A stretch of 13,490 bases of DNA from the NCBI GenBank assembly GCA_964463155.1, contig CAYXAY010000019.1:1-13490 (forward strand), written 5' to 3'. The notes below the pieces were generated by a model, which was given only the letters and a program-made list of their open reading frames with translations, was not told the DNA's origin and searched no databases. Each line of letters begins with the position of its first letter. Within the stretch, counting starts at the first letter, position 1. The DNA comes from an uncultured archaeon (GTDB taxonomy: Archaea > Iainarchaeota > Iainarchaeia > Iainarchaeales > CSSED10-239). A program made the position numbers and the translations under genes. Below are positions 110 to 13,490 of this stretch, piece by piece.

Positions 110-3100
110 ATGGGAAAGAAACTATATTATTCTTTAGAAAACAAATGGTATGATTTTGTAGAAAATACAGGACTATATAAGATCACGGACAAGATAGATA
201 AGTTCATGCCGTCTTTTATATTTTTCATGCTTCTTGTGATTATGATAATTGCAGGAGTGTTCCTATTACTGCCAACAATAACTGGCGAAGGAGAAGTAGG
301 AATAACATTTAAAGTGATAGATGATTCTAGAGACCCAGTTCCACTTGCACCAGTAAGTGTCTCAACAATTGATAACTTCTACACATTAATAGCAAACGAA
401 GACGGAATCACCAGAAAAATAAATATTCCAAAAAACACAGAATACACAGTAGATATTGATTTTGTGGGAAGCAACTATGAAACATTTTCAATAGATTATT
501 TTGCAGAAGATAGTGAGCAAGTAACAATATATCTAACAGAAACCACAAGACAAACAACAACACGCTACACAGTAACATTGATTGATACATCCACAAAACA
601 AAAAATAAACGCGAACGGCAGGGCTGAGTTTACTTGTTCAAATCCAGGTGCAATAGCACCAGCTGCAGTAACAATAACAAACGGTGTGATTGATGTGAAT
701 GCTAATAGCAACTGTCAATTAAGGGCAACATCAATAACTCTTCAAGGCTATGACACAAGACATTCAACAGCTATAGGCCAGAACACAACTTCCATTGATT
801 TACAACGCACAACTATAGATTTAAAAGAAGCACATCCATTACATATCACAGTCAATGGAGAAGGCGGCGCTCCATTAACAGGAGTAACAGCAGCACTTTA
901 CGCTAATGGTGTAGCAATAGCAGGAAAAACTTGTGTAACACTTGCGGGTGTCTGTTCAATAACAGGAGTAGAAACAGGAAATTATGTCCTTAAAGTTACA
1001 GACACAAGGGTTGTCCCAGAATATGGTTCAACAAATGTTCCAATAACAATAACAGGAACAACAAACAGGACAGTTACTTTAACTAGAACAATTGCTGGTG
1101 ACATACGTGTAAAAGTAAGGAAAGCAAACGGTCAAGCAGTAGAAGGAGCAAACACTAAACTAAAATATGGAGACACAGAAATCTATAGTGGATTTTTAAC
1201 AGATGCAAATGGTTTAGTAACATTACCAGTTTATGATTTAACAAAAACATATAGAGTTGTTGTTGTAAAAGAAGGATACATGATTGCTTCACAAAGCAAT
1301 GTTACAGCAAGCGCAACAACACCAATAATAATAACCTTACAGGCAATAACCCCACAAACAGTTGCAACATTAAAGATTAGAGTTCTAAATAGCGAAACAG
1401 CAAAAGGCTTTTCTCATGCCCAAGTTGTTTTGTATGATGCTAAAACAGGATTTTTAACAGATTACGATTCACAAATAACAAACAGCGATGGAAACTGTAC
1501 ATTTAGAGTAAGCGCTGGCAGATATTATGCCAAAGCATTTAGAGGCTCATCAAGCGGCATAAGTGACGAGTTTGATTTTGATGTAAGAAATGCAACAGAC
1601 AGTAGTCCAGTAATTATTCCAATAGAGGTAGTTAAAGGAACTTTAAGAGTTTCTGTAGTAAACAACTATGGAGAGGCAGTTTCAAGAGCAAACATTATTT
1701 TATTTGACAAATATAGTTCTAGACAATCAGTGTGGGGCGGAGACCTCGCAAACATTGATGGAACATATGATATTTCTGAACTGACAGCGGACACCGAAGT
1801 TTATGCAGTAGTTTCAGATATACAGGATAACCTAGGCATGACACAATCAGAGTATGTTTATATTAGACCAGGAATTACAAACGATTTAAAAGTAACTCTT
1901 TATCCAAAGGTTTCTGCTTTACAAAAACCACAAATACAGTTTTTGGGTTTCTTTAATGATTCAGGAAACAAATTAAATGGATATTTAAGAGCTGGCGGAG
2001 ACTACAAGGCAAAATTCTTGTTATTAGTTCCACAAGAAAGAGATAGAGATGATGAGTTCCAAGAAGTTGGAGCGGTCATAAGAACTGGTTCAACAACAAG
2101 CACAGGAATCTCAACAACACCATATATGGAAAATGACAGCATTTACCTAAAATCAATTGATCTTCCAAACTCAGAGATTACAAAATACACTCAATATAGT
2201 TCTGAGGTAGGATATGATGGAATTGAAGATGAAGACACAATAACACAAGGCGATGCAAAATGGGCAAAGGTTGTTTTCAATGAAATCTATGGAAATAATT
2301 TTGCTAACGCTTATACAATAATGGCAGATGTTAAGATTAGAGATTCTGCAAGCTATGGTGAAAGAGTAAATGTCAGTTATTTGGGCTTTGGTTATAACGA
2401 AGACGATGAATATGAGACAGACCCTAATGATAATACAAATAATAATGATGTAGAATACATGACTTATAAAACAGAAAGCTTCAATATCGGAGAAGAACAA
2501 GCATGTTCAAAAGATTTCTGTTTTACTTTAAATATTACAGACCTATATGAAGACATAAGAAAAGACGTTGTTTCAGATTACACCGCAACCCCTCATCAAC
2601 ATTATAAGTTAAGGTTTGGATTAATCAATAACAATAAAAATAGAATACACAATAACTCAAGATTAGAACTTGAAAACAAAGATAAAGGCCTAACCTTTGA
2701 AAGCATAAACATAACTCAACCAAACGGGGTCCCCCAAAACATCACTCCAACAAACAACATCTACGAATATAAGATACCTGTTGAAAGATTTGACCCGCAC
2801 ACAACTCTTTCAGGAGAAATAAATTTCGTTCCTGTGTTAAAGGGAGATAGGCAGTTTGTTATTAGCTTTGTTTCTGATCAACAAGTAATATTTACAAAAC
2901 TTGTTGTAATACAGGTTTTGTCAGATAAAACATTTACTGTTAAAGTAACACCAGATGTCATACCTTCCGGAAAGAACTTCAATCTTCAAGTTGAAGTCAA
3001 AGATTCAAAGACAGGCATAGAGGTTGAAAATCCAGTAACCGTAAGAGTAAAAGATAGATTCAAAAGGGATTTGCTTGCAAACCCAGTACGAGTTGGACCA

Positions 3101-4660
3101 CTTGGAATTGCGTCAGTAAACAACATCCCTGGTCAACAATCCGGAGACAAGATTTATGTTTATGTTGAGGCACCAGAGTATGAGACAAGCATTACAGAAA
3201 AAGAAGTTACAGAAAATATCTTTAAGATTACTCCAACAAGACTAGGGGTGTCATTAAATATTAATACAAAACCACAAGACACAACAAAGTTTACACTTGA
3301 AAACCTAAGTGAAAACGAATTGACAATAGAGTCAATAAAACTAATAGGTAACGACAACCAGATTGATGTGATTGATGTCCAAAGAATAAACAATTCTCTT
3401 GCAGGATATTTCGGAACTGTAATACCTGGCTTTGACTCAAGCGAAACAGCAAACAACTACAATAACAAGCAAGAGATTGAAGCAAGATTCTTTACAAGCC
3501 CTAGAGTTGAAACAATACGCGAAGTTAGAAACATCAGCTCAAAGTTAATAATACAATTAAAGGACAAATACAATAAAGATTATGTTTGGGAAGCACAATT
3601 GCCAACAACAATAGCTGTAGGTTATGAAGGTTTAATGGACAATCCAAACTGTATAACTCTTTCAGATGGTTTCTGGGAGGCAACAGTAGTTGACAATTAT
3701 GTGGATAAGCAATTCACATTAAAGAATAATTGTGGAGTAAAGGAAAGACCAGTTCCATTAAACGGTGGCTTGTCAGCTAAAGTTGAGTTTGAAGGAAATC
3801 CATTAGGTCGGTTTACAGTAAATGTTGGAAACAGAGGCGTGGAATTATCACATGGTTATTTCAAGAACATCTATGACACAATTGACCAAGAGAAATCATA
3901 TAATGTTAATATAAGATATACTCCTGTTGGGAGATACACAGGAGACATCAAAGGTAAGATTATCTTTAGATCAGTTAATGCAACATCTTCTGGCAATCAA
4001 GAACTAATAACCGAATACAAGTTTGTATTGCATGTTGTTAGCCTAAAAGACTGTTATACAGTTTCAAAGAAAGTATTAACTGCTCCAGATACAGGACAAG
4101 CAGATGTCTTTGTCATTGAGAACAAAGGCTGTGGAGCAGAGACGATTTATAGATTGTCATGCGATGAATGTACAGGTCTTGTCATCAGCCCTAAGGAAGA
4201 TATAAAGGTTAGTGCAACAGGAACATCAGAAGAAATAAAAGTAATGTCTATGGGGGCAATGCCAGGGATGTACATACTAAACTTATATTCAAAGATAGGC
4301 GGAGCAAGAGGACATGAAAGAAATGTTGGGAGAGTAAGAGTAGAAGTAAGACCTGTAAGTCAATGTCTTGATCTTGACAGATATGAGTATGACTTGTACC
4401 GATATGCATATTCAGAAGGCAGCGGTCAAGCAACAACAGCAAAAAGCTTTGATATAGGAAACCTAATCAACCGTTGTTATGGCCAAGACGTAAAAATTAA
4501 AGGAACACTATCAGACGGGGTAAAATGGCGTGCAGCAGGCGTGAGCGGCTTAAGAGACGGGGTATTTACAGGCCTAACTTCCGCTTTAATAAAAAAAATA
4601 ATTCCAAACAAAAAGGCAAACACGGCAGAAATAAACCAGACAGCCACGGCGTCTTCATAA
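110..4660 (+). CDS. Giant membrane-anchored cell-surface protein (1,516 aa) with tandem carboxypeptidase-regulatory-like/Ig-like beta-sandwich domains and paired-Cys modules; function unknown ('A1')
   Basis: This is the longest closed ORF, running from ATG 110 to TAA 4658-4660. About 33 polar residues precede a hydrophobic helix, PSFIFFMLLVIMIIAGVFLLLP. Residues ~63-598 read as six repeats of ~85-90 aa. An example is IRVKVRKANGQAVEGANTKLKY..TDANGLVTLPV..YRVVVVKEGY, i.e. the 'V.V.D..G.P..GA.V.L...TD.NG.....L..G.Y.h.h..GY' pattern of CarboxypepD_reg/prealbumin-like folds. The C-terminal half contains Cys pairs (CSKDFC, NPNC..KNNC, KDC..NKGC). The protein is rich in Thr/Asn/Ile and no enzymatic motif was recognised. 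Confidence 0.9.
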   Translation: MGKKLYYSLENKWYDFVENTGLYKITDKIDKFMPSFIFFMLLVIMIIAGVFLLLPTITGEGEVGITFKVIDDSRDPVPLAPVSVSTIDNFYTLIANEDGITRKINIPKNTEYTVDIDFVGSNYETFSIDYFAEDSEQVTIYLTETTRQTTTRYTVTLIDTSTKQKINANGRAEFTCSNPGAIAPAAVTITNGVIDVNANSNCQLRATSITLQGYDTRHSTAIGQNTTSIDLQRTTIDLKEAHPLHITVNGEGGAPLTGVTAALYANGVAIAGKTCVTLAGVCSITGVETGNYVLKVTDTRVVPEYGSTNVPITITGTTNRTVTLTRTIAGDIRVKVRKANGQAVEGANTKLKYGDTEIYSGFLTDANGLVTLPVYDLTKTYRVVVVKEGYMIASQSNVTASATTPIIITLQAITPQTVATLKIRVLNSETAKGFSHAQVVLYDAKTGFLTDYDSQITNSDGNCTFRVSAGRYYAKAFRGSSSGISDEFDFDVRNATDSSPVIIPIEVVKGTLRVSVVNNYGEAVSRANIILFDKYSSRQSVWGGDLANIDGTYDISELTADTEVYAVVSDIQDNLGMTQSEYVYIRPGITNDLKVTLYPKVSALQKPQIQFLGFFNDSGNKLNGYLRAGGDYKAKFLLLVPQERDRDDEFQEVGAVIRTGSTTSTGISTTPYMENDSIYLKSIDLPNSEITKYTQYSSEVGYDGIEDEDTITQGDAKWAKVVFNEIYGNNFANAYTIMADVKIRDSASYGERVNVSYLGFGYNEDDEYETDPNDNTNNNDVEYMTYKTESFNIGEEQACSKDFCFTLNITDLYEDIRKDVVSDYTATPHQHYKLRFGLINNNKNRIHNNSRLELENKDKGLTFESINITQPNGVPQNITPTNNIYEYKIPVERFDPHTTLSGEINFVPVLKGDRQFVISFVSDQQVIFTKLVVIQVLSDKTFTVKVTPDVIPSGKNFNLQVEVKDSKTGIEVENPVTVRVKDRFKRDLLANPVRVGPLGIASVNNIPGQQSGDKIYVYVEAPEYETSITEKEVTENIFKITPTRLGVSLNINTKPQDTTKFTLENLSENELTIESIKLIGNDNQIDVIDVQRINNSLAGYFGTVIPGFDSSETANNYNNKQEIEARFFTSPRVETIREVRNISSKLIIQLKDKYNKDYVWEAQLPTTIAVGYEGLMDNPNCITLSDGFWEATVVDNYVDKQFTLKNNCGVKERPVPLNGGLSAKVEFEGNPLGRFTVNVGNRGVELSHGYFKNIYDTIDQEKSYNVNIRYTPVGRYTGDIKGKIIFRSVNATSSGNQELITEYKFVLHVVSLKDCYTVSKKVLTAPDTGQADVFVIENKGCGAETIYRLSCDECTGLVISPKEDIKVSATGTSEEIKVMSMGAMPGMYILNLYSKIGGARGHERNVGRVRVEVRPVSQCLDLDRYEYDLYRYAYSEGSGQATTAKSFDIGNLINRCYGQDVKIKGTLSDGVKWRAAGVSGLRDGVFTGLTSALIKKIIPNKKANTAEINQTATASS
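209..274 (+). other. N-terminal transmembrane/signal-anchor helix of gene 1 (aa 34-55)
   Basis: An uninterrupted hydrophobic run, PSFIFFMLLVIMIIAGVFLLLP, follows a Lys/Asp-rich leader (..YKITDKIDKFM). No signal-peptidase-like A-x-A site is obvious. Confidence 0.7.
296..1903 (+). other. Array of six tandem ~85-90-aa beta-sandwich (CarboxypepD_reg-like) domains in gene 1
   Basis: Repeated starts are VGITFKVID, RYTVTLID, LHITVNGE, IRVKVRKA, LKIRVLNS and LRVSVVNN. Each is followed by a '(T)D.(N/D)G' turn and a '..Y.h.h' strand. The array ends at Tyr598. Confidence 0.55.
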
Positions 4661-4793: not shown

Positions 4794-4797
4794 GGTG
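4794..4797 (+). promoter_or_regulatory. Shine-Dalgarno-like (AA)GGTG for gene 2
   Basis: GGTG lies 7 nt upstream of ATG 4805. I saw no hairpin plus T-run between genes 1 and 2, so co-transcription is plausible. Confidence 0.45.
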
Positions 4798-4804
4798 TAA
4801 AAAA

Positions 4805-4882
4805 ATGAAATCAAATCTAAAATTTGTTTTAGGACTAACAATGGCTTTGTTGCTATTGTTTAGTGTAGGAAATGTTTATGCG
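4805..4882 (+). other. Predicted Sec-type signal peptide of gene 2 (aa 1-26, cleavage after VYA)
   Basis: A basic n-region (MKSNLK) precedes the hydrophobic core FVLGLTMALLLLFSV and a small-residue c-region (GNVYA). Confidence 0.7.
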
Positions 4883-7708
4883 GGGGGTACTTCTAACAAT
4901 AACACCACAGCAACACTCTCCGCCTTACAGTCTGCCTTTAATCTGATTACTGGCGTTTTTGGCAAGCTTGTCGGTGGACCGTTCTGGCTACACGGTATTG
5001 TCGCAGGAGCAACATCTGCATTTAAAACATACAGTGCTCTTGATCAAACAATCAAAATGAATCTAAGAAGTGAAAGAGTAAATGTCTCTGACAACGAGTT
5101 TGTTTCAGAGGACGCAAAAAAAGAACTAAGGATTGATTTTGACAACAACGTAGTATTAACAGACCAAAATGTATTAGATATTGATTTCATAGTTACAAGA
5201 AAAGCAAAAGAGTTTAAAGATACACAAGGACGAGAAAAAAGCCCAAAAATCAGATGGGCAGAAAAAACAGAGACAATAGATGTTATAGATGTTAATAACC
5301 AAAAAACAAAAGGACAAAAAAGAGCAATATTGTTTGAAGACTTAAACCAAACAATAAAGCAAGCATCAGAATATAGAACATTAGTAATTGAATACAAACA
5401 AGCAGAGTTTGGAAGACAGCCAGTAAAGATAACAATTGAAGACATTGACGATTTATATGGCAATGGAATGAGCTGGTTAAGAGTATTTACAACAGGTGTA
5501 GACCAGGCAAAGGAAAAACTTATTGACAGAATGGACAATTTAGAAAACGTATATGCTAAAAGAGAACCAAACCCATCACCAAACAAAGCACAAAAATTCC
5601 GTTTATTATTCAACTCAAGAGTAGATGATAATGAGACAATAAGCTCAGAACTACTTGATTGTACAAACGAAAAAGGAGACCCGATAGGTTCAACAGGAAC
5701 AGAAGTATTACCAAAAGTAGCATACAATTGGGACTTTAAAGAAAATAACACAGTAATCCCAATAGCTGGGGAAACTTCAAAAGTAGTAAACAACACTTGG
5801 TGTGATGTTGCAACAAATGGAATATATTGTGATGCAACACAAACAACAATAGAAGTATTACAAAAAATAAACACAATAAATGAGTTTGTAGAACTACATC
5901 GCGCAAACTTCACTTGCCCAACAGGAGCAGAAACACAAAACCTAGCAAGTGACATTAACAATGTTGGAATTGTTTATCTAAATGTAACTTCAGTTACTGA
6001 AAAAAAAGCAACATTTGAATACAAGATAAGAGGGAATTATCAAACTACAATACTACCTGCACCAAGAACACTATTTGATATTAACTATACTGTTCAAAAG
6101 AAGGCAGAGAATTCATTTAATTGGATAACAATAGCATCAGGGACAAAAATAATCGGTCACGAATACCTAAATAATGGCATCATAGATGAAACAATCCAAT
6201 CAACCTTTTCAACAGCAGCAACCGCAGAGGACACTATAAAAATAAAAGTATTCTTAACAAACTTTAATGCAATAATATCAAACAATGAAATTGGAAACAA
6301 CATAATAGACAATTCTTTAGAAGTTCAAACAAGTATAGAAGGGGGAACAGCAGGATGTACTCTAGAAAAGACAACAGAAAACCTAAAGAAATACCATCCT
6401 GAGTTTGATGAAAAACTATACAACTTCAAAGCATATCTAATGAAAGATGGATACAGTAATGATTTCAAGAAGGACTTTGATGAATATTACAGATTAACAT
6501 TTAACACAGGAATACCGAACTGGTATGATAATGCTGAAACATCATATTCTCCATTATACAAATACTTTATAGATCCGCAAAAATTCAAATTCAAACAAAG
6601 ATTTGCTAACGAAATTGAACAAACTATGCTTCCGGGACCAGGAAGATACAATGTAAAGATACTGATATATTATGATGATAATTGGAAACTATTCAATGAC
6701 AGAGGAGACATAACAGGAAAGATAGAGATCATTCTTGACAAAGAACAAAATCCAGAGCTTGATTCTCCACTATACTATATGCCACTTGACGGAATGGTAG
6801 GAAGCACAGGAGACAAGACAAGAAATGGCTATGGTGTAGATTATTTAGATGATAAGGTTCCAATATTTTTAGATTCTCAACACAATTATACTACAGCAAT
6901 GTTTACTGAAGGCTATCTTTCTTCAAACACAATTTCAACAATAAAGACAAAAGAGATAAAGGACTTTTCTACAATGAACAACGGAAACGAAAGAGGAAAG
7001 CTATTATCAATAACTAGAGCGCAAAACAATATATTAAACTTAAGATATATACCCTCAAGACCAACACCAGTAGCATTAAAAGTAACAAACACAAAAGCAA
7101 ACACACATGCCTATGCTTTCTATAAGTTATCAGTTGGTTTACCAATAGATCAAGGCGGAGAAGTTGCAACACCTGGTTTAAGTCTAGCAAATTGGACAGG
7201 AATTGGAGCAAGCAAACAATGTAGAGACTTTTCTGGAATACCAATACTTGAAAGATTCCTAGCAAGTGATGACCTTGTTTCAACAGAATCAGAACTAGGA
7301 CCAGTAACTCAAAGCCAAAGCCACAGTTATGGTGTTGAATGGAATAAGAATATTATCAGAAGAACAGGAAATGTTTGGTTATATACAATATTCTACACTC
7401 CTGCAAATTTCAAGACAGGCCCAGGAATAAGTTATTTGTATATTGATTCTGCAAACGACAATGCATTATTGTTTACAATAGATAACACTCAAAGAGACGG
7501 AAGTCAAAACGTAGCCTTAAAAAATAGATTTGAAAAAGACATTAAATCAATAACTGATGTCTTTGAATTAGTAAAAAACAAAAATGCATGTATATACAAC
7601 GACAGCAAATCACTAGATGTATTCTACAATCCAAAGAAAATCTCAGAGCCATTGACAGACGCTATTGAACACGGCCTAGACAGAGAAGGTGCTTGTATAA
7701 AGCACTAG
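4805..7708 (+). CDS. Secreted 967-aa protein with 8 Cys, unknown family ('B1'), probable partner of gene 1
   Basis: The ORF runs from ATG 4805 to TAG 7706-7708. The N-terminus MKSNLKFVLGLTMALLLLFSVGNVYA|GG is a classical n-h-c signal peptide with no lipobox Cys. It is followed by a Gly/Ala-rich hydrophobic stretch (aa ~43-73). The mature part has an even number of Cys (8). No catalytic motif such as HExxH was recognised. Confidence 0.9.
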   Translation: MKSNLKFVLGLTMALLLLFSVGNVYAGGTSNNNTTATLSALQSAFNLITGVFGKLVGGPFWLHGIVAGATSAFKTYSALDQTIKMNLRSERVNVSDNEFVSEDAKKELRIDFDNNVVLTDQNVLDIDFIVTRKAKEFKDTQGREKSPKIRWAEKTETIDVIDVNNQKTKGQKRAILFEDLNQTIKQASEYRTLVIEYKQAEFGRQPVKITIEDIDDLYGNGMSWLRVFTTGVDQAKEKLIDRMDNLENVYAKREPNPSPNKAQKFRLLFNSRVDDNETISSELLDCTNEKGDPIGSTGTEVLPKVAYNWDFKENNTVIPIAGETSKVVNNTWCDVATNGIYCDATQTTIEVLQKINTINEFVELHRANFTCPTGAETQNLASDINNVGIVYLNVTSVTEKKATFEYKIRGNYQTTILPAPRTLFDINYTVQKKAENSFNWITIASGTKIIGHEYLNNGIIDETIQSTFSTAATAEDTIKIKVFLTNFNAIISNNEIGNNIIDNSLEVQTSIEGGTAGCTLEKTTENLKKYHPEFDEKLYNFKAYLMKDGYSNDFKKDFDEYYRLTFNTGIPNWYDNAETSYSPLYKYFIDPQKFKFKQRFANEIEQTMLPGPGRYNVKILIYYDDNWKLFNDRGDITGKIEIILDKEQNPELDSPLYYMPLDGMVGSTGDKTRNGYGVDYLDDKVPIFLDSQHNYTTAMFTEGYLSSNTISTIKTKEIKDFSTMNNGNERGKLLSITRAQNNILNLRYIPSRPTPVALKVTNTKANTHAYAFYKLSVGLPIDQGGEVATPGLSLANWTGIGASKQCRDFSGIPILERFLASDDLVSTESELGPVTQSQSHSYGVEWNKNIIRRTGNVWLYTIFYTPANFKTGPGISYLYIDSANDNALLFTIDNTQRDGSQNVALKNRFEKDIKSITDVFELVKNKNACIYNDSKSLDVFYNPKKISEPLTDAIEHGLDREGACIKH

Positions 7709-7798: not shown

Positions 7799-8041
7799 AT
7801 GATTTATATGCGGAAAACTATGAAGTTTGACATTGTTCTAGAAAAACAAAAAGAAGGCGGTTATACAGTCTATGTTCCATCTTTGCCTGGTTGCATCTCC
7901 CAAGGCGAGACAGAAAAAGAAGCCATAACAAATATTAGAGAAGCAATAGAAATGTATATTGAAGAAATCAATTCAAATAAACTAAAAACCATGTTAAATT
8001 CTTTTTCTATCAAACAAACACAAGTGACTATTAATGTATAA
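7799..8041 (+). CDS. hicB: HicB-family antitoxin (UPF0150/HicB-like), short form without a recognisable DNA-binding domain
   Basis: MKFDIVLEKQKEGGYTVYVPSLPGCISQGETEKEAITNIREAIEMYIEE matches the HicB N-terminal consensus (..E..e.GGY.a.VP.LPGC.sqG.T.eEA..n.keAIe.yle). The true start may be ATG 7808 or ATG 7820 (MKFD..), both in frame. The TAA stop is at 8039-8041. It overlaps hicA by 8 nt. Confidence 0.85.
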   Translation: MIYMRKTMKFDIVLEKQKEGGYTVYVPSLPGCISQGETEKEAITNIREAIEMYIEEINSNKLKTMLNSFSIKQTQVTINV

Positions 8042-8252
8042 GATTGATAATCTTTCAGCTAAGGATGTAATAAAGATTTTGCAACTTAAAGGTTATTTTA
8101 TACTAAGACAAAAAGGCAGTCACATGCTACTTAAAAACAAAGACAACAAAATAATGGTCATTCCAAACCACAAAACCCTAAAAATAGGAACAACGCGTCA
8201 AATAATCAAATCTATTGACTTAATAAAGCAAGGAGTTGAAAGATTATTATAG
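8034..8252 (+). CDS. hicA: HicA-family mRNA-interferase toxin (YcfA-like)
   Basis: LSAKDVIKILQLKGYFILRQKGSHMLLKNKDNKIMVIPNHKTLKIGTTRQIIKSIDL matches the HicA consensus (l..kelik.L.k.Gf...RqkGSH..l.......t.vP.H..elk.GTl..IlkqagL), including the GSH histidine. Its ATG lies within the end of hicB (ATGTATAA overlap), which indicates translational coupling. The TAG stop is at 8250-8252. Confidence 0.9.
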   Translation: MYKIDNLSAKDVIKILQLKGYFILRQKGSHMLLKNKDNKIMVIPNHKTLKIGTTRQIIKSIDLIKQGVERLL

Positions 8253-8348: not shown

Positions 8349-11300
8349 ATGTCATTTGCTTTAAAATACCAGGCATTTTTAGAGAAAATAAATACTAGAA
8401 TGCCAATCAAATGGTTAACAAAACCAATAGATAAGATTCATCCTCTAACTTCTTTTTTCGTGTTTATATTAATAGTCTTAGCAATATTGTTCTTTATCTT
8501 TAAACCACACATTCTTCCTGAAGCAAAAATAGAATACATGTCTTTTACAATAGGTCTTACAGACAGCAATGGACAGCTACTTAAAAACTTTGAGTTTGAA
8601 ATAAAAAATTTCAAAGACAATGTAACTCAAACCCATAGGACAGGAAACAACGGGCAGTTAATCATTGAACTTGACAAGTTTGGACATTATTCTATTATTG
8701 TTGACAAAAAAGGATATAAGTACACAGAAGAGTCAATTGATTTGTCAAGAGACAAACAACACTTTGTAATACAATTATTTAGTCTTCCAACAACCCAAAA
8801 CAAAGCCTTAATGTTTGTTGGAACTGACGGCAAACCAATTTCTGAAAACCTAAATGTTACAATCACTTGCCGAGACGGAACTACAATAGACCCATCAACA
8901 GCAACAGTGATAAACGGAACAGGAAACTTTACGGTTCCAGTATCCTGTAATTATCTTGTTGCAACCGCTATAGGAAACACATATTCTGGACAAAACATTC
9001 CAATCAACCAAACAACAGGAATAGTGACTGTTCCTCCAAGAGCAGCAAACACAAGCGTTGGAAGAGTGACAATAAAAACTAGTAGTAATAATAATTTTTT
9101 AGATAGAATAACACTAAGAATATACAAGGAAGGAAACACCATTGATTCAATTGCTTCTGGACAAACAACAACAGGTTACAAGTCTTTTGCAAACATAGAG
9201 ACAGGAAACTATATAGTTATTGCAACAGACGATTCGTTAAGATATCAAACAGCAAACTCAACATTTACTGTCACAAAAAACACAGAAACACAAGTGACAA
9301 TTGACTTGGTTCCAATTGCAGGAAACGAAACGACCCCAGGAATAAACACAAGAGACATAAAAGTCATAGTAAAGGATTTAGATACAAACCAAGAGCTAGA
9401 CTCAACATCTCTAACAAACATAATCTTAACAACAACAATTGGTGGTTCTCCTCAAACAGTAGACACAAAACCATATGTTTCTGCAGGAGTAATCTTTAGA
9501 ATTGATTCAAGCAAGCAATATTCATTAACTGTAAGAGCAGAAGGCTATATTGCCCAAGTAAAAAACATAACACCAAACATTAATGATTATATGATTTTTT
9601 TAGAAAAAGAAACAGTAAGCAATGTTTCTGATATCAATGTCAGTGTGAGAGATGAAGACAACCTTCCAGTAATCGGTGCAACACTATTGATTTATGATGG
9701 TAGTTCTGAATTTTTAGATACTAGATTTAGATCAGTAATAACTGACAATAACGGCAGCACAAGCTTTGATAACATACCAAGAGGATATTATTTTATTAGG
9801 CTAAGAAAAAACAATGTTGTTTCTCAATCCCCAAAATTTAATCATAATCCTCCAAGCGACACAAATCTTTCAATGAACATCAACATAGGTCAAGGAACAA
9901 TCAATCTTACAATAAAAAATACCGCTAATGAGATTATTAATTTTGCAAACATAAGGATATTTGATATTAGTGGAAGAGAAATAGGAGTTGACCAGGCAAC
10001 GCAAGCAGGAACATACACAAGGAGACTAAAAGCCGACAAGACGGTTTATATAAAGATTTCAAAAGACGGCTATTTTGATTATTACACAGAGTTATTGCCA
10101 ATTATTGGTGGAGAAACAATCAACAAAGAAATAAAACTAACAAGACTAGGGACAATAAATGTTCCAACAGCAGAGCTTGTTGGTTTATATAATATGCAAG
10201 ACCGTTCTGCAACCCACTTAACCCAAAACACAAGATATTATTTCAAGTTTAGAATCATTAATCCGAGTTCAGGAAACATTGGTTTAAGGTTTATGATTGG
10301 AGAGAAAAATACAGCAACAGAAGACATAGTTTATATAAAACCAATAACAGACTCCAAAGCAAACATTAGTTATTATAGTAATACAAACCTTGACATTGTT
10401 GCTCAAGATGTTCCTGCAAAAATAGCGGACGCAATCTTTGTAAATGCTAGTCAAGCAGTATATGAACTATTAATACCAGTAACCACTGTACAAGCAAGAA
10501 GAGGGCAAGCAATTCCTATCTATTATTCTGTTTTTACTGCTAATCCTCCAGCAATAAATAACCTAACAAACCAAAATGTCTATTACATTGATGTTTCAGA
10601 AATATGTTCAGAAAACTTTTGTATATCAGGCCAATATCTTGATATTGAAAGTGATATTATTTATGACTTGTCTACAACAAACCCAATGGTTGTAAACAAA
10701 AACTATGACTTAAAATATGTTTTAACAAACGCAAAGTCAAATGTTTACATAGGTAATAGACTGTCAATAACAAATGTAGAAAACTCGTCAGAAATGCAAG
10801 CGCATTCAATTGATATTAGCTATTACAATATCTTTGGTAATGGTTTTTCATACACCAGTAATTCTGGAAACCAATTAAGAAACAAAATACCATTTACTTC
10901 TGAGTTCTTGAATCTACCACAGATTAATGTTTATGATAAGATTAATATTAACTCCAAAATAAAACCAGCAGTTCTTGGAACAACAAGATTGCAAAACAAG
11001 ATAATCTCTAACCAAGCAATAGCATATAACCAATTCATTAGTTTTAATGTTTCACAACAATATCCTTTCACAATAGATTATGAACCAAAGAACATAGTTC
11101 CAGGAAGGCCATTTAACATGACAGTAACTGCTCTTGGCAACTCGGCAATACCAGTAAACAACGCCATAGTAAATGTTTATCAAAGACTTGCAAACAACCA
11201 GCTAGTAACAGTAACAAATGGAAGCTTTAGAACAAACGATTATGGACAAGCAATTGTTGCTCTTCCAGCAGTGCGAAATGGTGAAAAAATAATTATTGCT

Positions 11301-13490
11301 GTTGAGAAAAGCGGATATTACGCTCAACCATTAGAGATAACAATAACTCAAAACATCTTGTCTTTAAAGCAAGGAACAACAGCAGTAACTGACAATGCGC
11401 CATTTACAATTAATGTTCATAAGTCAAATGCTCTTGGCACAGAAAAAACATTAACAATAATAAATAAGACAAACTACCCATTAAGATTAAAGCAATTTAG
11501 AGACGATAGTTTTAGCTTTAGAAATTCAAACTATTTAAATATAGAACAATTACAAAACCACTTAAACAGCCAAGTAGATGGTATAGTTATTCCAGCTAAT
11601 GGTGAAGACAACCTAAAAATAAAATTATCAGCATCTCAAGATGCAACAAATGTCACAGAAACAATAAACATAACCGGAAACATAATAGGTTATGTCACTG
11701 TTGACAACTCAATAACAGAATATCCTTTCAATATCCCAATGAATGTTAAGATTTCAGTTGGAGAAGGAGTAGAAGCAGACGATTGTTTAACATTTACAGG
11801 AATGAGCAATCCTTTTGAGGCAGTTGTTGGAGGAAATGGCTTTACAACAGAAAGCTTTACAATAATAAACAACTGTAAAAGAAAAGGAAACGATGAACAA
11901 GGCGTTGTTCTAAACGCTCTAAGGGCAAAAGTTGTAAACACAAAAGACCAATATGGTTATTACACTTTAAGAGTAAGAGAAAGAACAATAACACTTTCAG
12001 AAGGCGCTTACACAACAATACTTAGTGATTTAGAGCCTGGCCCATATGATGCTACACTAACCTATTACTCCATGGATAAAAAGATTGGAGATGTAGAAAG
12101 CAAGATTTACATTAATGCTCAGATAGAGACAGACACTGGTTTAAAATATGTAAACACAACAAGAGATGTTGCATTTACAACAAAGATAGCAATAAGAAAG
12201 ATAGAAGACTGTATTGACTTCTATGATGACGGCAAAAAGATAAACAACATGCTTGTTATTCCTAAAGAAATCAACACAACAGAAGTAAAAGACATAACAA
12301 TAAAAAACAACTGCTCAACACTTGGAAGATTTAAGTTATACTTTTGTGGAGAATACAAAGAATATGAGGGTTGTCAAGAACTAAGATACGAAAACATGCT
12401 AGGATATCTACAAAACGAGCTAAGCTTCAATCTTGGAGAAGACTCACAAATTGTAGGAATCATTAAGCCAGATGTTCCTGGTGGCTATATAATCCCAGTA
12501 AGAGTATCAATCTTAAGCGACAGCGGAAGAGCAATAGCAACTGTTGAAAAAAGACTAAAAGTAAATGTACAGTCAGGAAGAGCAAACAGCCTATACATGG
12601 TAGATCCATTTATTGAAGTAGAAAAAGTAATAACTTCTAGAAATCAAAACACCTATGTAAGTCCAGAAGTCAAGCTACTAAACAGCGACATCAACAAGAC
12701 TCCTTGGTATTATGCTACACGGAAAGTTGGTGATACTGGATTTAGTAAATATATGAATGAATTTTCGCCGGAATCAAGTGTATTAGAGAAAGTTATATTT
12801 GTTAATTTTGAAACATTTACAGTTAATAAAGAAGGCATGGATTCATTTTTGCGTGGTTGGGTAGAAGCCACATATATAATAGGTATGTCGGTTATTTCAT
12901 TCGTTTGTTTGGTTTGTGCATTGGCTCTATTGACGGTTCAAATAGTTGATTGGTTATTACCGTCATTAACTAACAACTATAAAGAAGATGTAACTTATAA
13001 TATGCCAAAAATCTATGAAGATTTCTTAAAAACTAGCCCAGATATAGAAAAAGCGAAAACAATAAATGTTGTTGGTAATACCGATACAGCATATATTTCT
13101 ATAATTGACATTACGGGTGCGAGATATAGACAATTATATAATTTAAAAAATCATATACACGGGAAATTAATAAGCGATATTACTATTTCCCAAAAATTGG
13201 ATTTGTGTTCAAAAAATAATTACCAAACTGTTGGCGCAGATGCGTTTTGGAGTGAAAACCCAAAAAACTGTGATAATTTAAGAGTTACTACTGATGGTAC
13301 CGGATATAAATACACAGTAGATTGTGATGGCGCTTGGAATTTTGGTAGCAAAAAGATCGATGCAACATATAATGGCATATTAGAATGTAGATTTAATGAA
13401 ACAATTTGGCCAGAGCAAGCAGGCATCAAACCCCTTATCTTTAATGTGTCGGATACAAATTTAATTAATAGACTAAAAATGGGCGAAACA
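8349..13490 (+). CDS. Second giant surface protein, 3'-truncated by the window edge (>=1,714 aa). It is a paralogue of gene 1 ('A2') that continues past an internal TM helix into a Cys-containing tail ('B2'-like).
   Basis: This ORF is not in the ORF track. I translated the frame by hand, codon by codon, from ATG 8349 to base 13490 and found no stop. The nearest upstream in-frame stop is TAA 8325-8327, and ATG 8349 is the first ATG after it. The product starts MSFALKYQAFLEKINTRMPIKWLTKPIDKIHPLTSFFVFILIVLAILFFIF, followed by six CarboxypepD_reg-like repeats (e.g. INVSVRDEDNLPVIGATLLIYD..TDNNGSTSFDNIPRGYYFIRL). It then has CSENFC, DDC..INNC and EDC..KNNC modules collinear with gene 1. Confidence 0.9.
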   Translation, partial: MSFALKYQAFLEKINTRMPIKWLTKPIDKIHPLTSFFVFILIVLAILFFIFKPHILPEAKIEYMSFTIGLTDSNGQLLKNFEFEIKNFKDNVTQTHRTGNNGQLIIELDKFGHYSIIVDKKGYKYTEESIDLSRDKQHFVIQLFSLPTTQNKALMFVGTDGKPISENLNVTITCRDGTTIDPSTATVINGTGNFTVPVSCNYLVATAIGNTYSGQNIPINQTTGIVTVPPRAANTSVGRVTIKTSSNNNFLDRITLRIYKEGNTIDSIASGQTTTGYKSFANIETGNYIVIATDDSLRYQTANSTFTVTKNTETQVTIDLVPIAGNETTPGINTRDIKVIVKDLDTNQELDSTSLTNIILTTTIGGSPQTVDTKPYVSAGVIFRIDSSKQYSLTVRAEGYIAQVKNITPNINDYMIFLEKETVSNVSDINVSVRDEDNLPVIGATLLIYDGSSEFLDTRFRSVITDNNGSTSFDNIPRGYYFIRLRKNNVVSQSPKFNHNPPSDTNLSMNINIGQGTINLTIKNTANEIINFANIRIFDISGREIGVDQATQAGTYTRRLKADKTVYIKISKDGYFDYYTELLPIIGGETINKEIKLTRLGTINVPTAELVGLYNMQDRSATHLTQNTRYYFKFRIINPSSGNIGLRFMIGEKNTATEDIVYIKPITDSKANISYYSNTNLDIVAQDVPAKIADAIFVNASQAVYELLIPVTTVQARRGQAIPIYYSVFTANPPAINNLTNQNVYYIDVSEICSENFCISGQYLDIESDIIYDLSTTNPMVVNKNYDLKYVLTNAKSNVYIGNRLSITNVENSSEMQAHSIDISYYNIFGNGFSYTSNSGNQLRNKIPFTSEFLNLPQINVYDKININSKIKPAVLGTTRLQNKIISNQAIAYNQFISFNVSQQYPFTIDYEPKNIVPGRPFNMTVTALGNSAIPVNNAIVNVYQRLANNQLVTVTNGSFRTNDYGQAIVALPAVRNGEKIIIAVEKSGYYAQPLEITITQNILSLKQGTTAVTDNAPFTINVHKSNALGTEKTLTIINKTNYPLRLKQFRDDSFSFRNSNYLNIEQLQNHLNSQVDGIVIPANGEDNLKIKLSASQDATNVTETINITGNIIGYVTVDNSITEYPFNIPMNVKISVGEGVEADDCLTFTGMSNPFEAVVGGNGFTTESFTIINNCKRKGNDEQGVVLNALRAKVVNTKDQYGYYTLRVRERTITLSEGAYTTILSDLEPGPYDATLTYYSMDKKIGDVESKIYINAQIETDTGLKYVNTTRDVAFTTKIAIRKIEDCIDFYDDGKKINNMLVIPKEINTTEVKDITIKNNCSTLGRFKLYFCGEYKEYEGCQELRYENMLGYLQNELSFNLGEDSQIVGIIKPDVPGGYIIPVRVSILSDSGRAIATVEKRLKVNVQSGRANSLYMVDPFIEVEKVITSRNQNTYVSPEVKLLNSDINKTPWYYATRKVGDTGFSKYMNEFSPESSVLEKVIFVNFETFTVNKEGMDSFLRGWVEATYIIGMSVISFVCLVCALALLTVQIVDWLLPSLTNNYKEDVTYNMPKIYEDFLKTSPDIEKAKTINVVGNTDTAYISIIDITGARYRQLYNLKNHIHGKLISDITISQKLDLCSKNNYQTVGADAFWSENPKNCDNLRVTTDGTGYKYTVDCDGAWNFGSKKIDATYNGILECRFNETIWPEQAGIKPLIFNVSDTNLINRLKMGET
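8448..8501 (+). other. N-terminal transmembrane/signal-anchor helix of gene 5 (aa 34-51)
   Basis: The hydrophobic run TSFFVFILIVLAILFFIF follows the leader ..KPIDKIHPL, in the same position and context as in gene 1. Confidence 0.7.
8538..10148 (+). other. Array of six tandem beta-sandwich (CarboxypepD_reg-like) domains in gene 5
   Basis: Repeat starts are MSFTIGLTD, ALMFVGTD, GRVTIKTS, IKVIVKDL, INVSVRDE and INLTIKNT. The array ends at about residue 600, against 598 in gene 1. Confidence 0.55.
12873..12947 (+). other. Internal hydrophobic (transmembrane-like) helix of gene 5, aa 1509-1533
   Basis: YIIGMSVISFVCLVCALALLTVQIV is the only long hydrophobic run after the N-terminal anchor. It is flanked by ..FLRGWVEAT and DWLLPSL. 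Confidence 0.6.

Follow-up and report, generated by a model that had tools for sequence, protein, structure and literature searches.

The stretch of DNA analysed here, a window of 13,490 nucleotides, carries part of a cluster of giant surface-protein genes of a tiny Diapherotrites (DPANN) archaeon. We consider it very likely that gene 5, the last gene in the window, encodes a giant in which two modules, A and B, are fused in one chain, and that genes 1 and 2 together represent a distant paralogue with the same layout, which fission split long ago. One genome would thus hold fused and anciently split versions side by side. Annotation of the region would also change: gene 5 would code for a protein of about 2,500 amino acids and not for an "anchor plus cytoplasmic tail", and gene 2 would be no isolated secreted protein. 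Both belong to a large superfamily that can now be defined, whose members are built to a constant plan: an anchor, a stalk module, a labile hydrophobic junction and a C-terminal module.

Gene 5 and its full-length orthologues

All features discussed here are on the forward strand. Gene 5 starts at position 8349 and runs past the end of the window, with 1,714 amino acids visible. Its A part (residues 1-1506, positions 8349-12866) contains a cytoplasmic motif, a signal-anchor transmembrane helix (residues 33-51, positions 8445-8501, dG about -6; this and all other dG values come from a position-independent scale) and beta-sandwich repeats, with Pfam matches to CarboxypepD_reg (E 9e-17), SpaA and PEGA. 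The junction segment, A1507-V1533 (12867-12947), is followed by the visible tail (residues 1534-1714, positions 12948-13490), which begins with an acidic and aromatic post-helix motif and continues as an Ig-like linker domain. In the AF2 model of the tail, residues 1542-1701 form a beta-rich domain with a pLDDT of about 80-88, and a Foldseek search of the PDB with the junction model returned only Ig-like matches (integrin legs, TCR). An earlier reading of the sequence alone had described a single internal hydrophobic helix followed by four cysteines (in the contexts LCSKNN, NCDN, VDCDG and LECRF), and both are confirmed. The cysteines are residues 1620, 1641, 1659 and 1680, all invariant across the orthologues, and the linker-domain motifs DITGARY and WPEQAGIKPL are conserved.

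Twenty orthologues of gene 5 were found, all from Diapherotrites archaea; the complete ones are 2,466-2,518 aa long and none is split. Residues 1-1713 of gene 5 align end to end with a complete 2,504-aa protein (L010) at 50% identity, and the A part is 50-67% identical to the A parts of the full-length orthologues. The complete proteins run about 900-1,000 residues past the junction, and every one of them ends in a B core resembling gene 2: their C-terminal ~700 aa are homologous to gene 2 residues 258-951. A profile comparison (hhalign) of the gene 2 family with the orthologue tails, taken from five full-length and two partial orthologues, gave a probability of 100% and an E-value of 4.9e-52 over 622 aligned columns. 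Between single sequences, the L010 protein and gene 2 align in two places: residues 2093-2488 of the former with 541-946 of the latter (31% identity, E 3e-38), and 1775-1866 with 265-372 (E 1e-6). By the register of the orthologues, the B core of gene 5 would start about 35-60 residues beyond the window end, that is, past nucleotide 13490, its presence being taken from orthologues at 34-67% identity.

What is visible of gene 5 would then be the front two-thirds (1,714 residues) of a surface protein of about 2,470-2,510 aa. At the N-terminus of such a protein, a short, conserved cytoplasmic stretch would lead into the signal-anchor helix, which is very hydrophobic. Outside the cell would follow module A, with Ig-like beta-sandwich domains over about 1,450 residues, then a Gly-rich hydrophobic junction, then the Ig-like linker domain with its four Cys (the visible tail) and, beyond the window, the beta-rich B core, about 700 residues long.

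For contig extension, an exact look-up of HicA, one of the genes upstream of gene 5, returned only a shorter Logan contig of 5.8 kb, an exact look-up of gene 2 returned no record, and a metagenome scan gave two loci ending inside the gene. When the word index was queried with residues 1265-1714 of gene 5, no match came back. Because the full-length gene 5 query did recover orthologues, the C-terminal parts of giant proteins are apparently not covered by this index. In four gene 2 contexts (L005, L011, L012 and L013) the retrieved sequence (10-kb flank) covers the gene 5 orthologue up to about residue 1,500.

The split pair and the direction of the event

Gene 1 (110-4660) encodes the A module alone, and its open reading frame of 1,516 aa is as long as the sequence-only reading had it. 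An N-terminal cytoplasmic motif precedes its signal-anchor helix (residues 36-54, positions 215-271, dG about -6.4), and Ig-like/CarboxypepD_reg beta-sandwich repeats come after it (Pfam CarboxypepD_reg, E 6.5e-12). Hydrophobicity and dG scans of the whole protein, C-terminus included, found no hydrophobic segment besides the anchor. Gene 1 and gene 5 are collinear homologues with 23% identity across 1,355 aa (E 2e-33). It had been remarked that the gene 5 helix starts where gene 1 stops, and this coincidence is real, with the final conserved motif of gene 1 aligning about 35-45 residues ahead of the helix. Gene 1 has orthologues in L002 and L010 (60-69% identity) and in Candidatus Forterrea (45%).

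Gene 2 (4805-7708; 967 aa) encodes the B module alone. It opens with a Sec-type signal peptide (residues 1-26, positions 4805-4882) with a V-x-A cleavage motif, and signal peptides are present in 13/13 gene 2 orthologues (~975 aa). A GGTG motif at 4794-4797, 7 nt upstream of the ATG and preceded by an A/T-rich stretch, can be read from the sequence as a putative Shine-Dalgarno-like element, which would give gene 2 its own translation start. Behind the signal peptide lie a Gly-rich amphipathic region (residues 38-78, positions 4916-5038) and the B core (residues 258-951, positions 5576-7657), identified by its homology to the gene 5 orthologue tails. The AF2 model (pLDDT 80) is beta-rich, with helices at 3-23, 38-54 and 60-78. 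Searches of Pfam, NCBIfam and PDB sequences gave no match for gene 2 or module B. The first cysteine cluster, C286/C333/C342/C371 (5660-5917), lies inside the B core, and there are no cysteines from the signal peptide up to C286.

These four gene 2 cysteines are the ones that the sequence-only reading had listed, but the likeness it saw between them and the cysteines of the gene 5 tail does not reflect homology. The best BLASTP E-value is 2.7, and a profile comparison of gene 2 residues 1-262 with the equivalent of the visible tail gave an E-value of 0.046 and a probability of 1.2%. The register was also wrong, as hhalign places the gene 2 cluster opposite a later one, residues 1797-1866 of the L010 protein (L10_2504), the equivalent of which is about 60-150 residues past the window end of gene 5. 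The wider proposal, that gene 5 is an A+B fusion and that genes 1 and 2 have the same architecture in split form, is upheld by the B core at the C-terminus of the full-length orthologues.

A survey of split and fused relatives, suggested as a check on that proposal, supports it too. The gene 2 family profile retrieved 521 cluster representatives (50% identity clusters), and all superfamily members with a taxonomic name are Diapherotrites. Among the best 150 of the 521, 88 start with Met and have the length of a giant (2,100 aa or more); in the giants of this set the B match is at the C-terminal end, and 85 of the 88 have an N-terminal anchor. The N-terminal cytoplasmic motif is likewise seen in superfamily members. 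Of 133 relatives that could be classified, 108 are fused giants and 25 are split. In one fused protein of 2,586 aa, P0024, residues 6-1497 match gene 1 residues 3-1493 (E 3e-147) and residues 1829-2553 match gene 2 residues 190-946 (E 1e-77), so the two genes align to it collinearly and without overlap.

For the direction of the event we turn to the B core, from which a simple NJ tree was built, rooted at the midpoint and carrying no support values. In it 22 split gene-2-type proteins form one clade, which is sister to the fused P0024 and nested three nodes deep among fused proteins. From this nesting, fission of a fused ancestor is the most likely origin of genes 1 and 2. After fission, gene 1 would retain the anchor and module A, and gene 2 would retain module B and gain a cleavable Sec signal peptide of its own, because B must still reach the outside. 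The order of a gene 1-like, a gene 2-like and a gene 5-like gene is kept in L010 and in Candidatus Forterrea (34-45% identity). In L002 the order is unchanged and two genes for secreted proteins lie between the gene 2-like and gene 5-like genes, and in L014 a gene 2-like gene is followed by a gene 5-like one. The boundary between the gene 1-like and gene 2-like genes is of the stop-then-start type in L002, L010 and Forterrea (L018). With gene order and split kept in several genomes, the split is old and neither a frameshift nor an assembly error, which agrees with gene 2 having a signal peptide and a putative Shine-Dalgarno-like motif of its own. In the window, gene 2 and gene 5 are separated by HicB (7799-8041; Pfam HicB_lk_antitox, E 5.6e-13) and HicA (8034-8252; HicA_toxin, E 9.4e-15). 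This toxin-antitoxin pair is an insertion outside the A/B system, and in relatives its position is occupied by other genes or by none.

The opposite course, in which A and B were separate originally and giants of the gene 5 type were made by joining them, is unlikely in our estimation. An unrooted tree alone gives no direction, and a few stand-alone B proteins with signal peptides do occur outside the gene 2 clade (P0033 and P0078). There is even a second split/fused pair in the same cluster, with a B' protein alone on one side and giants of 2,317/2,409 aa on the other. Fusion would however have to account for the excess of fused forms among the classifiable relatives (108 against 25) and for the position of the 22 gene-2-type proteins, monophyletic and inside the fused forms with P0024 as sister. 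In similarity, moreover, fused giants stand much nearer to gene 1 (E about 1e-145) than gene 5 does (E 2e-33), and several independent fusions at one and the same junction would be required.

The hydrophobic junction and the placement of module B

The gene 5 junction segment has 27 uncharged residues, a mean KD of 2.26 and a dG of about -3 kcal/mol, and in a Kyte-Doolittle scan the sole hydrophobic segment besides the anchor is at 1504-1540. AF2 predicts helices at 1499-1511 and 1519-1540 here, with low confidence. In the 20 orthologues the junction is Gly/Ala-rich with 31-82 uncharged residues (most have 50-82), except that one protein, L14_2484, has no hydrophobic segment at this place. Gene 5 has the shortest and most hydrophobic junction among those that have one, and many of the others are only marginally hydrophobic in the dG scan. 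Further out in the superfamily, 47 of the 88 giants among the best 150 of 521 are without any internal hydrophobic segment. The hydrophobic junction is thus evolutionarily labile. Most orthologues reach the length of a two-helix hairpin (~40 or more uncharged residues), which the 27 residues of gene 5 do not; the gene 5 junction has lost about 25-30 residues, leaving a single strongly hydrophobic helix of 27 residues.

In gene 2, the counterpart of the junction appears, from sequence similarity, to be the Gly-rich stretch after the signal peptide; this segment gives a significant match to one fused protein only, P0038 (E 7e-6, small database). The sequence-only reading had implied that the gene 5 helix is equivalent to the gene 2 signal peptide, which is doubtful, as P0024, P0063 and others, the fused proteins nearest to genes 1 and 2, lack a hydrophobic junction. 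Descent of the signal peptide from the second junction helix of the orthologues was also considered and is unlikely on the same ground.

By the standard rules for stop-transfer sequences, a helix of the gene 5 type would leave B behind it in the cytoplasm, and the topology puzzle raised on this account was a fair one. The family context, which places B outside, answers it in part, for the other junctions more than for the 27-residue helix of gene 5 with its single-span length. We infer that B is extracellular in every form, which is the only placement that fits all junction variants: with orthologues that have zero or two helices, B must be outside. Gene 2 and its relatives carry signal peptides with V-x-A motifs, and according to AF2 and Foldseek the gene 5 helix is flanked by Ig-like sandwich domains before and after it. 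The flank on the C-terminal side of the helix is acidic, with one K/R against three D/E, and so lacks the charge that the positive-inside rule expects of a cytoplasmic flank. Nor does the protein look like a type I-like anchor with a cytoplasmic tail, the tail being an Ig-like sandwich with four invariant cysteines. In most orthologues the junction would cross the cell's own membrane twice, as a hairpin of two helices, or else only dip into it. For gene 5 itself, a non-spanning or re-entrant arrangement of the helix is more likely than a cytoplasmic B.

Three other arrangements can be set against an extracellular B joined to A by a hairpin or re-entrant segment. The gene 5 junction in this genome could be a true single-pass stop-transfer helix, with linker and B in the cytoplasm as a decaying or re-purposed allele. 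With its 27 uncharged residues, mean KD and dG it is, after all, the strongest junction segment among the 20 orthologues, and the visible 181 residues after it hold no second hydrophobic segment. We regard this as rather unlikely, as the tail retains all family-invariant residues (the four Cys, DITG.RY and WPEQAGIKP) and is predicted to be an Ig-like sandwich, its flank of one basic and three acidic residues is the opposite of a cytoplasmic flank, and the orthologues with zero or two helices need B outside. Little credence can be given to an internal signal at which fused precursors are cleaved, which would give the same pair of mature polypeptides from fused as from split genes. The two-helix junction has indeed the topology of a stop-transfer helix followed by a re-initiating signal, as in viral glycoprotein polyproteins, and gene 2, in the split form, opens with a cleavable signal peptide of canonical type. 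The second helix of the orthologues is however followed by a conserved P-x-F-F-S-D-Y without a small-x-small site and with a Pro near the helix end, and in about half of the giants a hydrophobic junction that could act as a signal is missing. Very improbable, finally, is a C-terminal anchor followed by an unrelated cytoplasmic domain with no relationship to gene 2. The visible tail shows no direct similarity to gene 2, which would agree with it, but the orthologues continue for about 900-1,000 residues into a gene-2-like B core (E 5e-52), and P0024, which covers gene 1 and then gene 2, contradicts it as well.

Known systems and possible function

DPANN archaea are believed to spend their lives attached to other cells, and to our knowledge the molecules that mediate this contact are almost unknown. 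A role of the A/B proteins in cell-surface or cell-cell interaction is probable from their predicted architecture. In Candidatus Forterrea multitransposorum, also a member of the Diapherotrites, a 42-kb region has been reported to encode five membrane-anchored proteins of large size (>1,800 aa), and a role in cell-cell interaction was guessed (Probst and Banfield 2018, PMC5905446). A locus of the complete Forterrea genome (L018) has gene 1-like, gene 2-like and gene 5-like (2,466 aa) genes in the order of the window, and so is very probably the same gene cluster. It holds at least two such giants and thus probably lies in the 42-kb region. The parts of the Forterrea paper drawn on here cover size, membrane anchoring and the guessed role, and in these parts the A/B architecture, the split and fused paralogues and the junction are absent. 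Beyond that remark, we found no description of the family in the literature.

Genes 1 and 2 resemble Rosetta-stone pairs, in which two adjacent genes are homologous, in order, to the halves of single proteins, and from this collinearity their two products may be expected to work together. The split pair argues that A and B would act as one unit on the cell surface. The case differs from such pairs in that both states coexist as paralogues in one cluster and that the split required the gain of a signal peptide by the distal half. This coexistence amounts to a natural experiment on the role of the junction. In the type Va autotransporters and type Vb two-partner secretion systems of Gram-negative bacteria, the same two modules likewise occur in one or in two polypeptides, and as here each polypeptide of the split version has its own export signal. 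There is no relationship in sequence or fold, no beta-barrel is involved and archaea have no outer membrane, so this is an analogy only. Adhesins with Ig-like repeats are similar in module A, which has Pfam matches to CarboxypepD_reg, SpaA, Big_1, SdrD-B and macroglobulin-like domains. They differ from the A/B proteins, where the anchor is N-terminal and not of the sortase or PGF-CTERM type, and where a ~700-aa B core without Pfam, NCBIfam or PDB sequence match is present.

Viral glycoprotein polyproteins contain internal hydrophobic hairpins and signal sequences, and class I fusion proteins have Gly-rich fusion peptides. The A/B proteins share with them a Gly/Ala-rich hydrophobic element at the boundary of two extracellular modules, which in the split form is near the mature N-terminus of the distal module. 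They differ in having no cleavage motif, and half of the A/B family is without the hydrophobic element. A viral-type fusogen found no support: the gene 2 model gave only isolated Ig-like or lectin-like matches in the PDB and BFVD (Foldseek), with a TM-score of at most 0.12, and none to the fold of a viral glycoprotein or of a class I, II or III fusion protein. It is a long shot that the Gly-rich junction, instead of anchoring the protein in the archaeon's membrane, is a membrane-inserting element on the tip of a long Ig stalk with a B head, engaging or penetrating the membrane of a host or partner. If it were, the variation in junction length from 0 to 82 residues and the amphipathic N-terminal segment of gene 2 would reflect different partners.

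Organisation of the cluster and the end of gene 1

The window (G+C about 33%) contains five genes, all on the + strand. Gene 1 (110-4660, 1,516 aa) is homologous to and collinear with gene 5, which starts at 8349 and has 1,714 aa visible before the window ends (E 2e-33, 23% identity across 1,355 aa). Both begin with a basic segment of about 32 residues followed by a very hydrophobic helix, and their Pfam matches are limited to Ig-like beta-sandwich families (CarboxypepD_reg, SpaA, PEGA). The cytoplasmic motif that precedes the anchor helix (roughly LE.KWY ... IDK..PS; window 110-271 and 8349-8501) is conserved in both genes and in distant giants, i.e. fused relatives of at least 2,100 aa, such as P0024, P0073, P0100 and P0145. 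Possibly it acts as a targeting or docking signal specific to the family. Gene 2 (4805-7708, 967 aa) carries a Sec-type signal peptide, and its sequence has no match in Pfam, NCBIfam or the PDB. Between gene 2 and gene 5 lies a toxin-antitoxin pair (7799-8252) with overlapping genes for the HicB antitoxin (7799-8041) and the HicA toxin (8034-8252). In relatives, this position either has no gene or encodes a pair of secreted proteins, one of 1,097-1,490 aa and one of 623-645 aa.

The observations on which the sequence-only reading was built are accurate. Besides its anchor, gene 5 has exactly one hydrophobic segment (uncharged core A1507-V1533, nt 12867-12947), and this is followed by four cysteines at residues 1620, 1641, 1659 and 1680; gene 2 has cysteines at residues 286, 333, 342 and 371. 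In the alignment, the final conserved motif of gene 1 falls some 35-45 residues before the helix in gene 5, so the stop of gene 1 truly corresponds to the onset of hydrophobicity in gene 5. The C-terminus of gene 1 (window 4540-4660) ends about 30 residues past a shared GLRDGVFTGL motif. Its orthologues (L002:4384-9975, L010:4967-9805, L018:1-2340) extend some 110 to 375 residues further, with hypervariable sequence that is Cys-rich or made of Pro/Thr repeats, and this variability indicates that the split A module (the gene 1-type part) is unconstrained at its C-terminal end. At one of these loci a 42-codon ORF is called between the gene 1 and gene 2 counterparts (L010:9833-9961); the 144-nt spacer of the window has no equivalent.

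Full-length relatives of gene 5

Thirteen proteins of about 975 aa make up the gene 2 family (50-100% identity). They occur with a gene 1-like gene immediately upstream, and downstream with a gene 5-like gene (called 2,472-2,508 aa) that is either adjoining or past two secreted-protein genes. Locus L010 has a complete gene 5-like copy of 2,504 aa, to which gene 5 residues 1-1713 align at 50% identity; its residues 2093-2488 correspond to gene 2 residues 541-946 (31% identity, E 3e-38), and residues 1775-1866 to gene 2 residues 265-372, including the Cys cluster (E 1e-6). A scan of species-representative genomes for a conserved WPEQAG motif added five further loci, among them one in the complete genome of Candidatus Forterrea multitransposorum and one in a 'Candidatus ainarchaeum' MAG. 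With full-length gene 5 as query, 16 orthologues of 2,476-2,518 aa were found, one of them labelled Candidatus Diapherotrites. A word-indexed search of the same database with gene 5 residues 1265-1714 (window 12141-13490) gave no match and so missed even orthologues of 59% identity, seemingly because very long proteins are not indexed in their C-terminal parts.

When the gene 2 family was compared with the orthologue tails by hhalign, the two were clearly homologous (probability 100%, E 4.9e-52, 622 columns), gene 2 residues 258-951 mapping to the last ~700 residues of the fused proteins. In the closest orthologue the match begins near residue 1750, equivalent in gene 5 to a point some 35-60 residues past the window cut. 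The proposal that gene 5 combines gene 1 and gene 2 is thus right, with its homologous part outside the window; the Cys-cluster argument originally offered for it does not hold. The visible tail of gene 5 finds gene 2 in BLASTP at a best E of only 2.7, and a profile-profile comparison of the N-terminal 262 residues of gene 2 with the visible-tail equivalent gave E 0.046 and a probability of 1.2%, so the resemblance of the clusters was rejected. The four-Cys domain visible in gene 5 is a linker domain of its own, which all orthologues keep invariant; gene 2 does not have it, and has no Cys before residue 286.

Location of the B module

The sequence-only reading also held that a second membrane pass in gene 5 would leave its B module (the gene 2-type part) in the cytoplasm, in conflict with the exported gene 2. 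Several observations indicate, across the family, that B lies outside the cell. The relatives of gene 2 carry V-x-A signal peptides. Among the best 150 of 521 representatives, 47 of 88 giants have no internal hydrophobic segment, among them the nearest fused relatives of genes 1 and 2; without such a segment, A and B must share one side of the membrane. In 20 gene 5 orthologues, 31-82 uncharged residues (mostly 50-67) rich in Gly, Ala and Thr form the A-B junction, a length sufficient for an in-and-out hairpin; one group has a 40-residue junction with a central PGP turn, and in the orthologue L14_2484 the stretch is absent. Scored on a biological hydrophobicity scale that is approximate, the N-terminal anchors reach about -6 kcal/mol, whereas many of these junctions lie between +0.9 and -1.9 kcal/mol and would insert only marginally or not at all. 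Acidic and aromatic residues, rather than basic ones, characterise the motif after the junction (P-x-F-F-S-D-Y onwards). Finally, Ig-like sandwiches flank the gene 5 helix on both sides in the AF2 model, and Foldseek with the junction model returned integrin-leg and TCR-type Ig matches only. Given this evidence, an even number of passes or none is the only arrangement that suits the whole family, which removes the general puzzle.

What is left of the conflict concerns gene 5 itself. Relative to its orthologues its junction has lost about 25-30 residues, leaving one segment of 27 residues, more hydrophobic than any of theirs (about -3 kcal/mol on the approximate scale). At face value this would read as a stop-transfer helix, and the B module of this one protein would then be cytoplasmic. 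That is improbable, however, as the domain after the helix retains every invariant residue; for this reason a non-spanning or re-entrant junction is favoured.

Probable fission, signal peptide and possible role

Searched exhaustively, the gene 2 family profile matched 521 cluster representatives; 88 of the best 150 were giants (at least 2,100 aa, with a Met start). The B match lies at the C-terminal end in the listed giants, and 85 of the 88 have an N-terminal anchor. Stand-alone B proteins with a signal peptide are confined to the gene 2 clade and a few outliers. P0024 (2,586 aa) is a true composite: residues 6-1497 match gene 1 residues 3-1493 (E 3e-147) and residues 1829-2553 match gene 2 residues 190-946 (E 1e-77). 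Fused giants of this kind are much nearer to gene 1 than gene 5 is. A midpoint-rooted NJ tree was built on the B core of 108 fused and 25 split proteins; in it, the 22 gene 2-type proteins form one clade, sister to P0024 and nested among fused forms, and in Forterrea the order gene 1, gene 2, gene 5 is retained at only 34-45% identity. The fusion/fission interpretation is supported by stronger evidence than the sequence-only reading could offer. By parsimony and this simple tree, we infer that genes 1 and 2 derive from one ancient fission of a P0024-like giant, and conclude that gene 5 is their distant fused paralogue.

As a hydrophobic junction is missing from the fused proteins nearest to genes 1 and 2, gene 2 more likely gained its signal peptide anew, as the fission required, than retained it from a junction helix. 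The Gly-rich residues 38-78 that follow the signal peptide, modelled by AF2 as two low-confidence helices, match the junction of the fused P0038 (E 7e-6, small database), with sub-threshold matches at the junctions of many other giants. This weakly suggests that they are the true counterpart of the junction.

AF2 models gene 2 with confidence (mean pLDDT 80, exceeding 90 in much of the core), and the whole model has no structural neighbour in the PDB or a viral structure library. Searches found no enzymatic or known binding domain. The Forterrea genome paper mentions a 42-kb region with five large proteins anchored in the membrane, which it regards as likely factors of cell-cell interaction (PMC5905446). 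Locus L018 very probably lies within this region. As a working model, a role at the surface or in cell contact would be reasonable. The superfamily is not a new kind of system; what results is a structural annotation that is useful for a lineage-specific group of uncharacterised giant proteins.

A second split/fused pair is present in the cluster (L002:1-4255, L010:1-4905; L002:13090-17562, L005:3677-6970). Its giants (2,317-2,409 aa) join an A-like part to a B'-like C-terminus without a hydrophobic junction, and there are stand-alone B' proteins of 1,097-1,490 aa that carry a signal peptide. A DC...YCDATQ motif is common to B' and B (E 4e-6).
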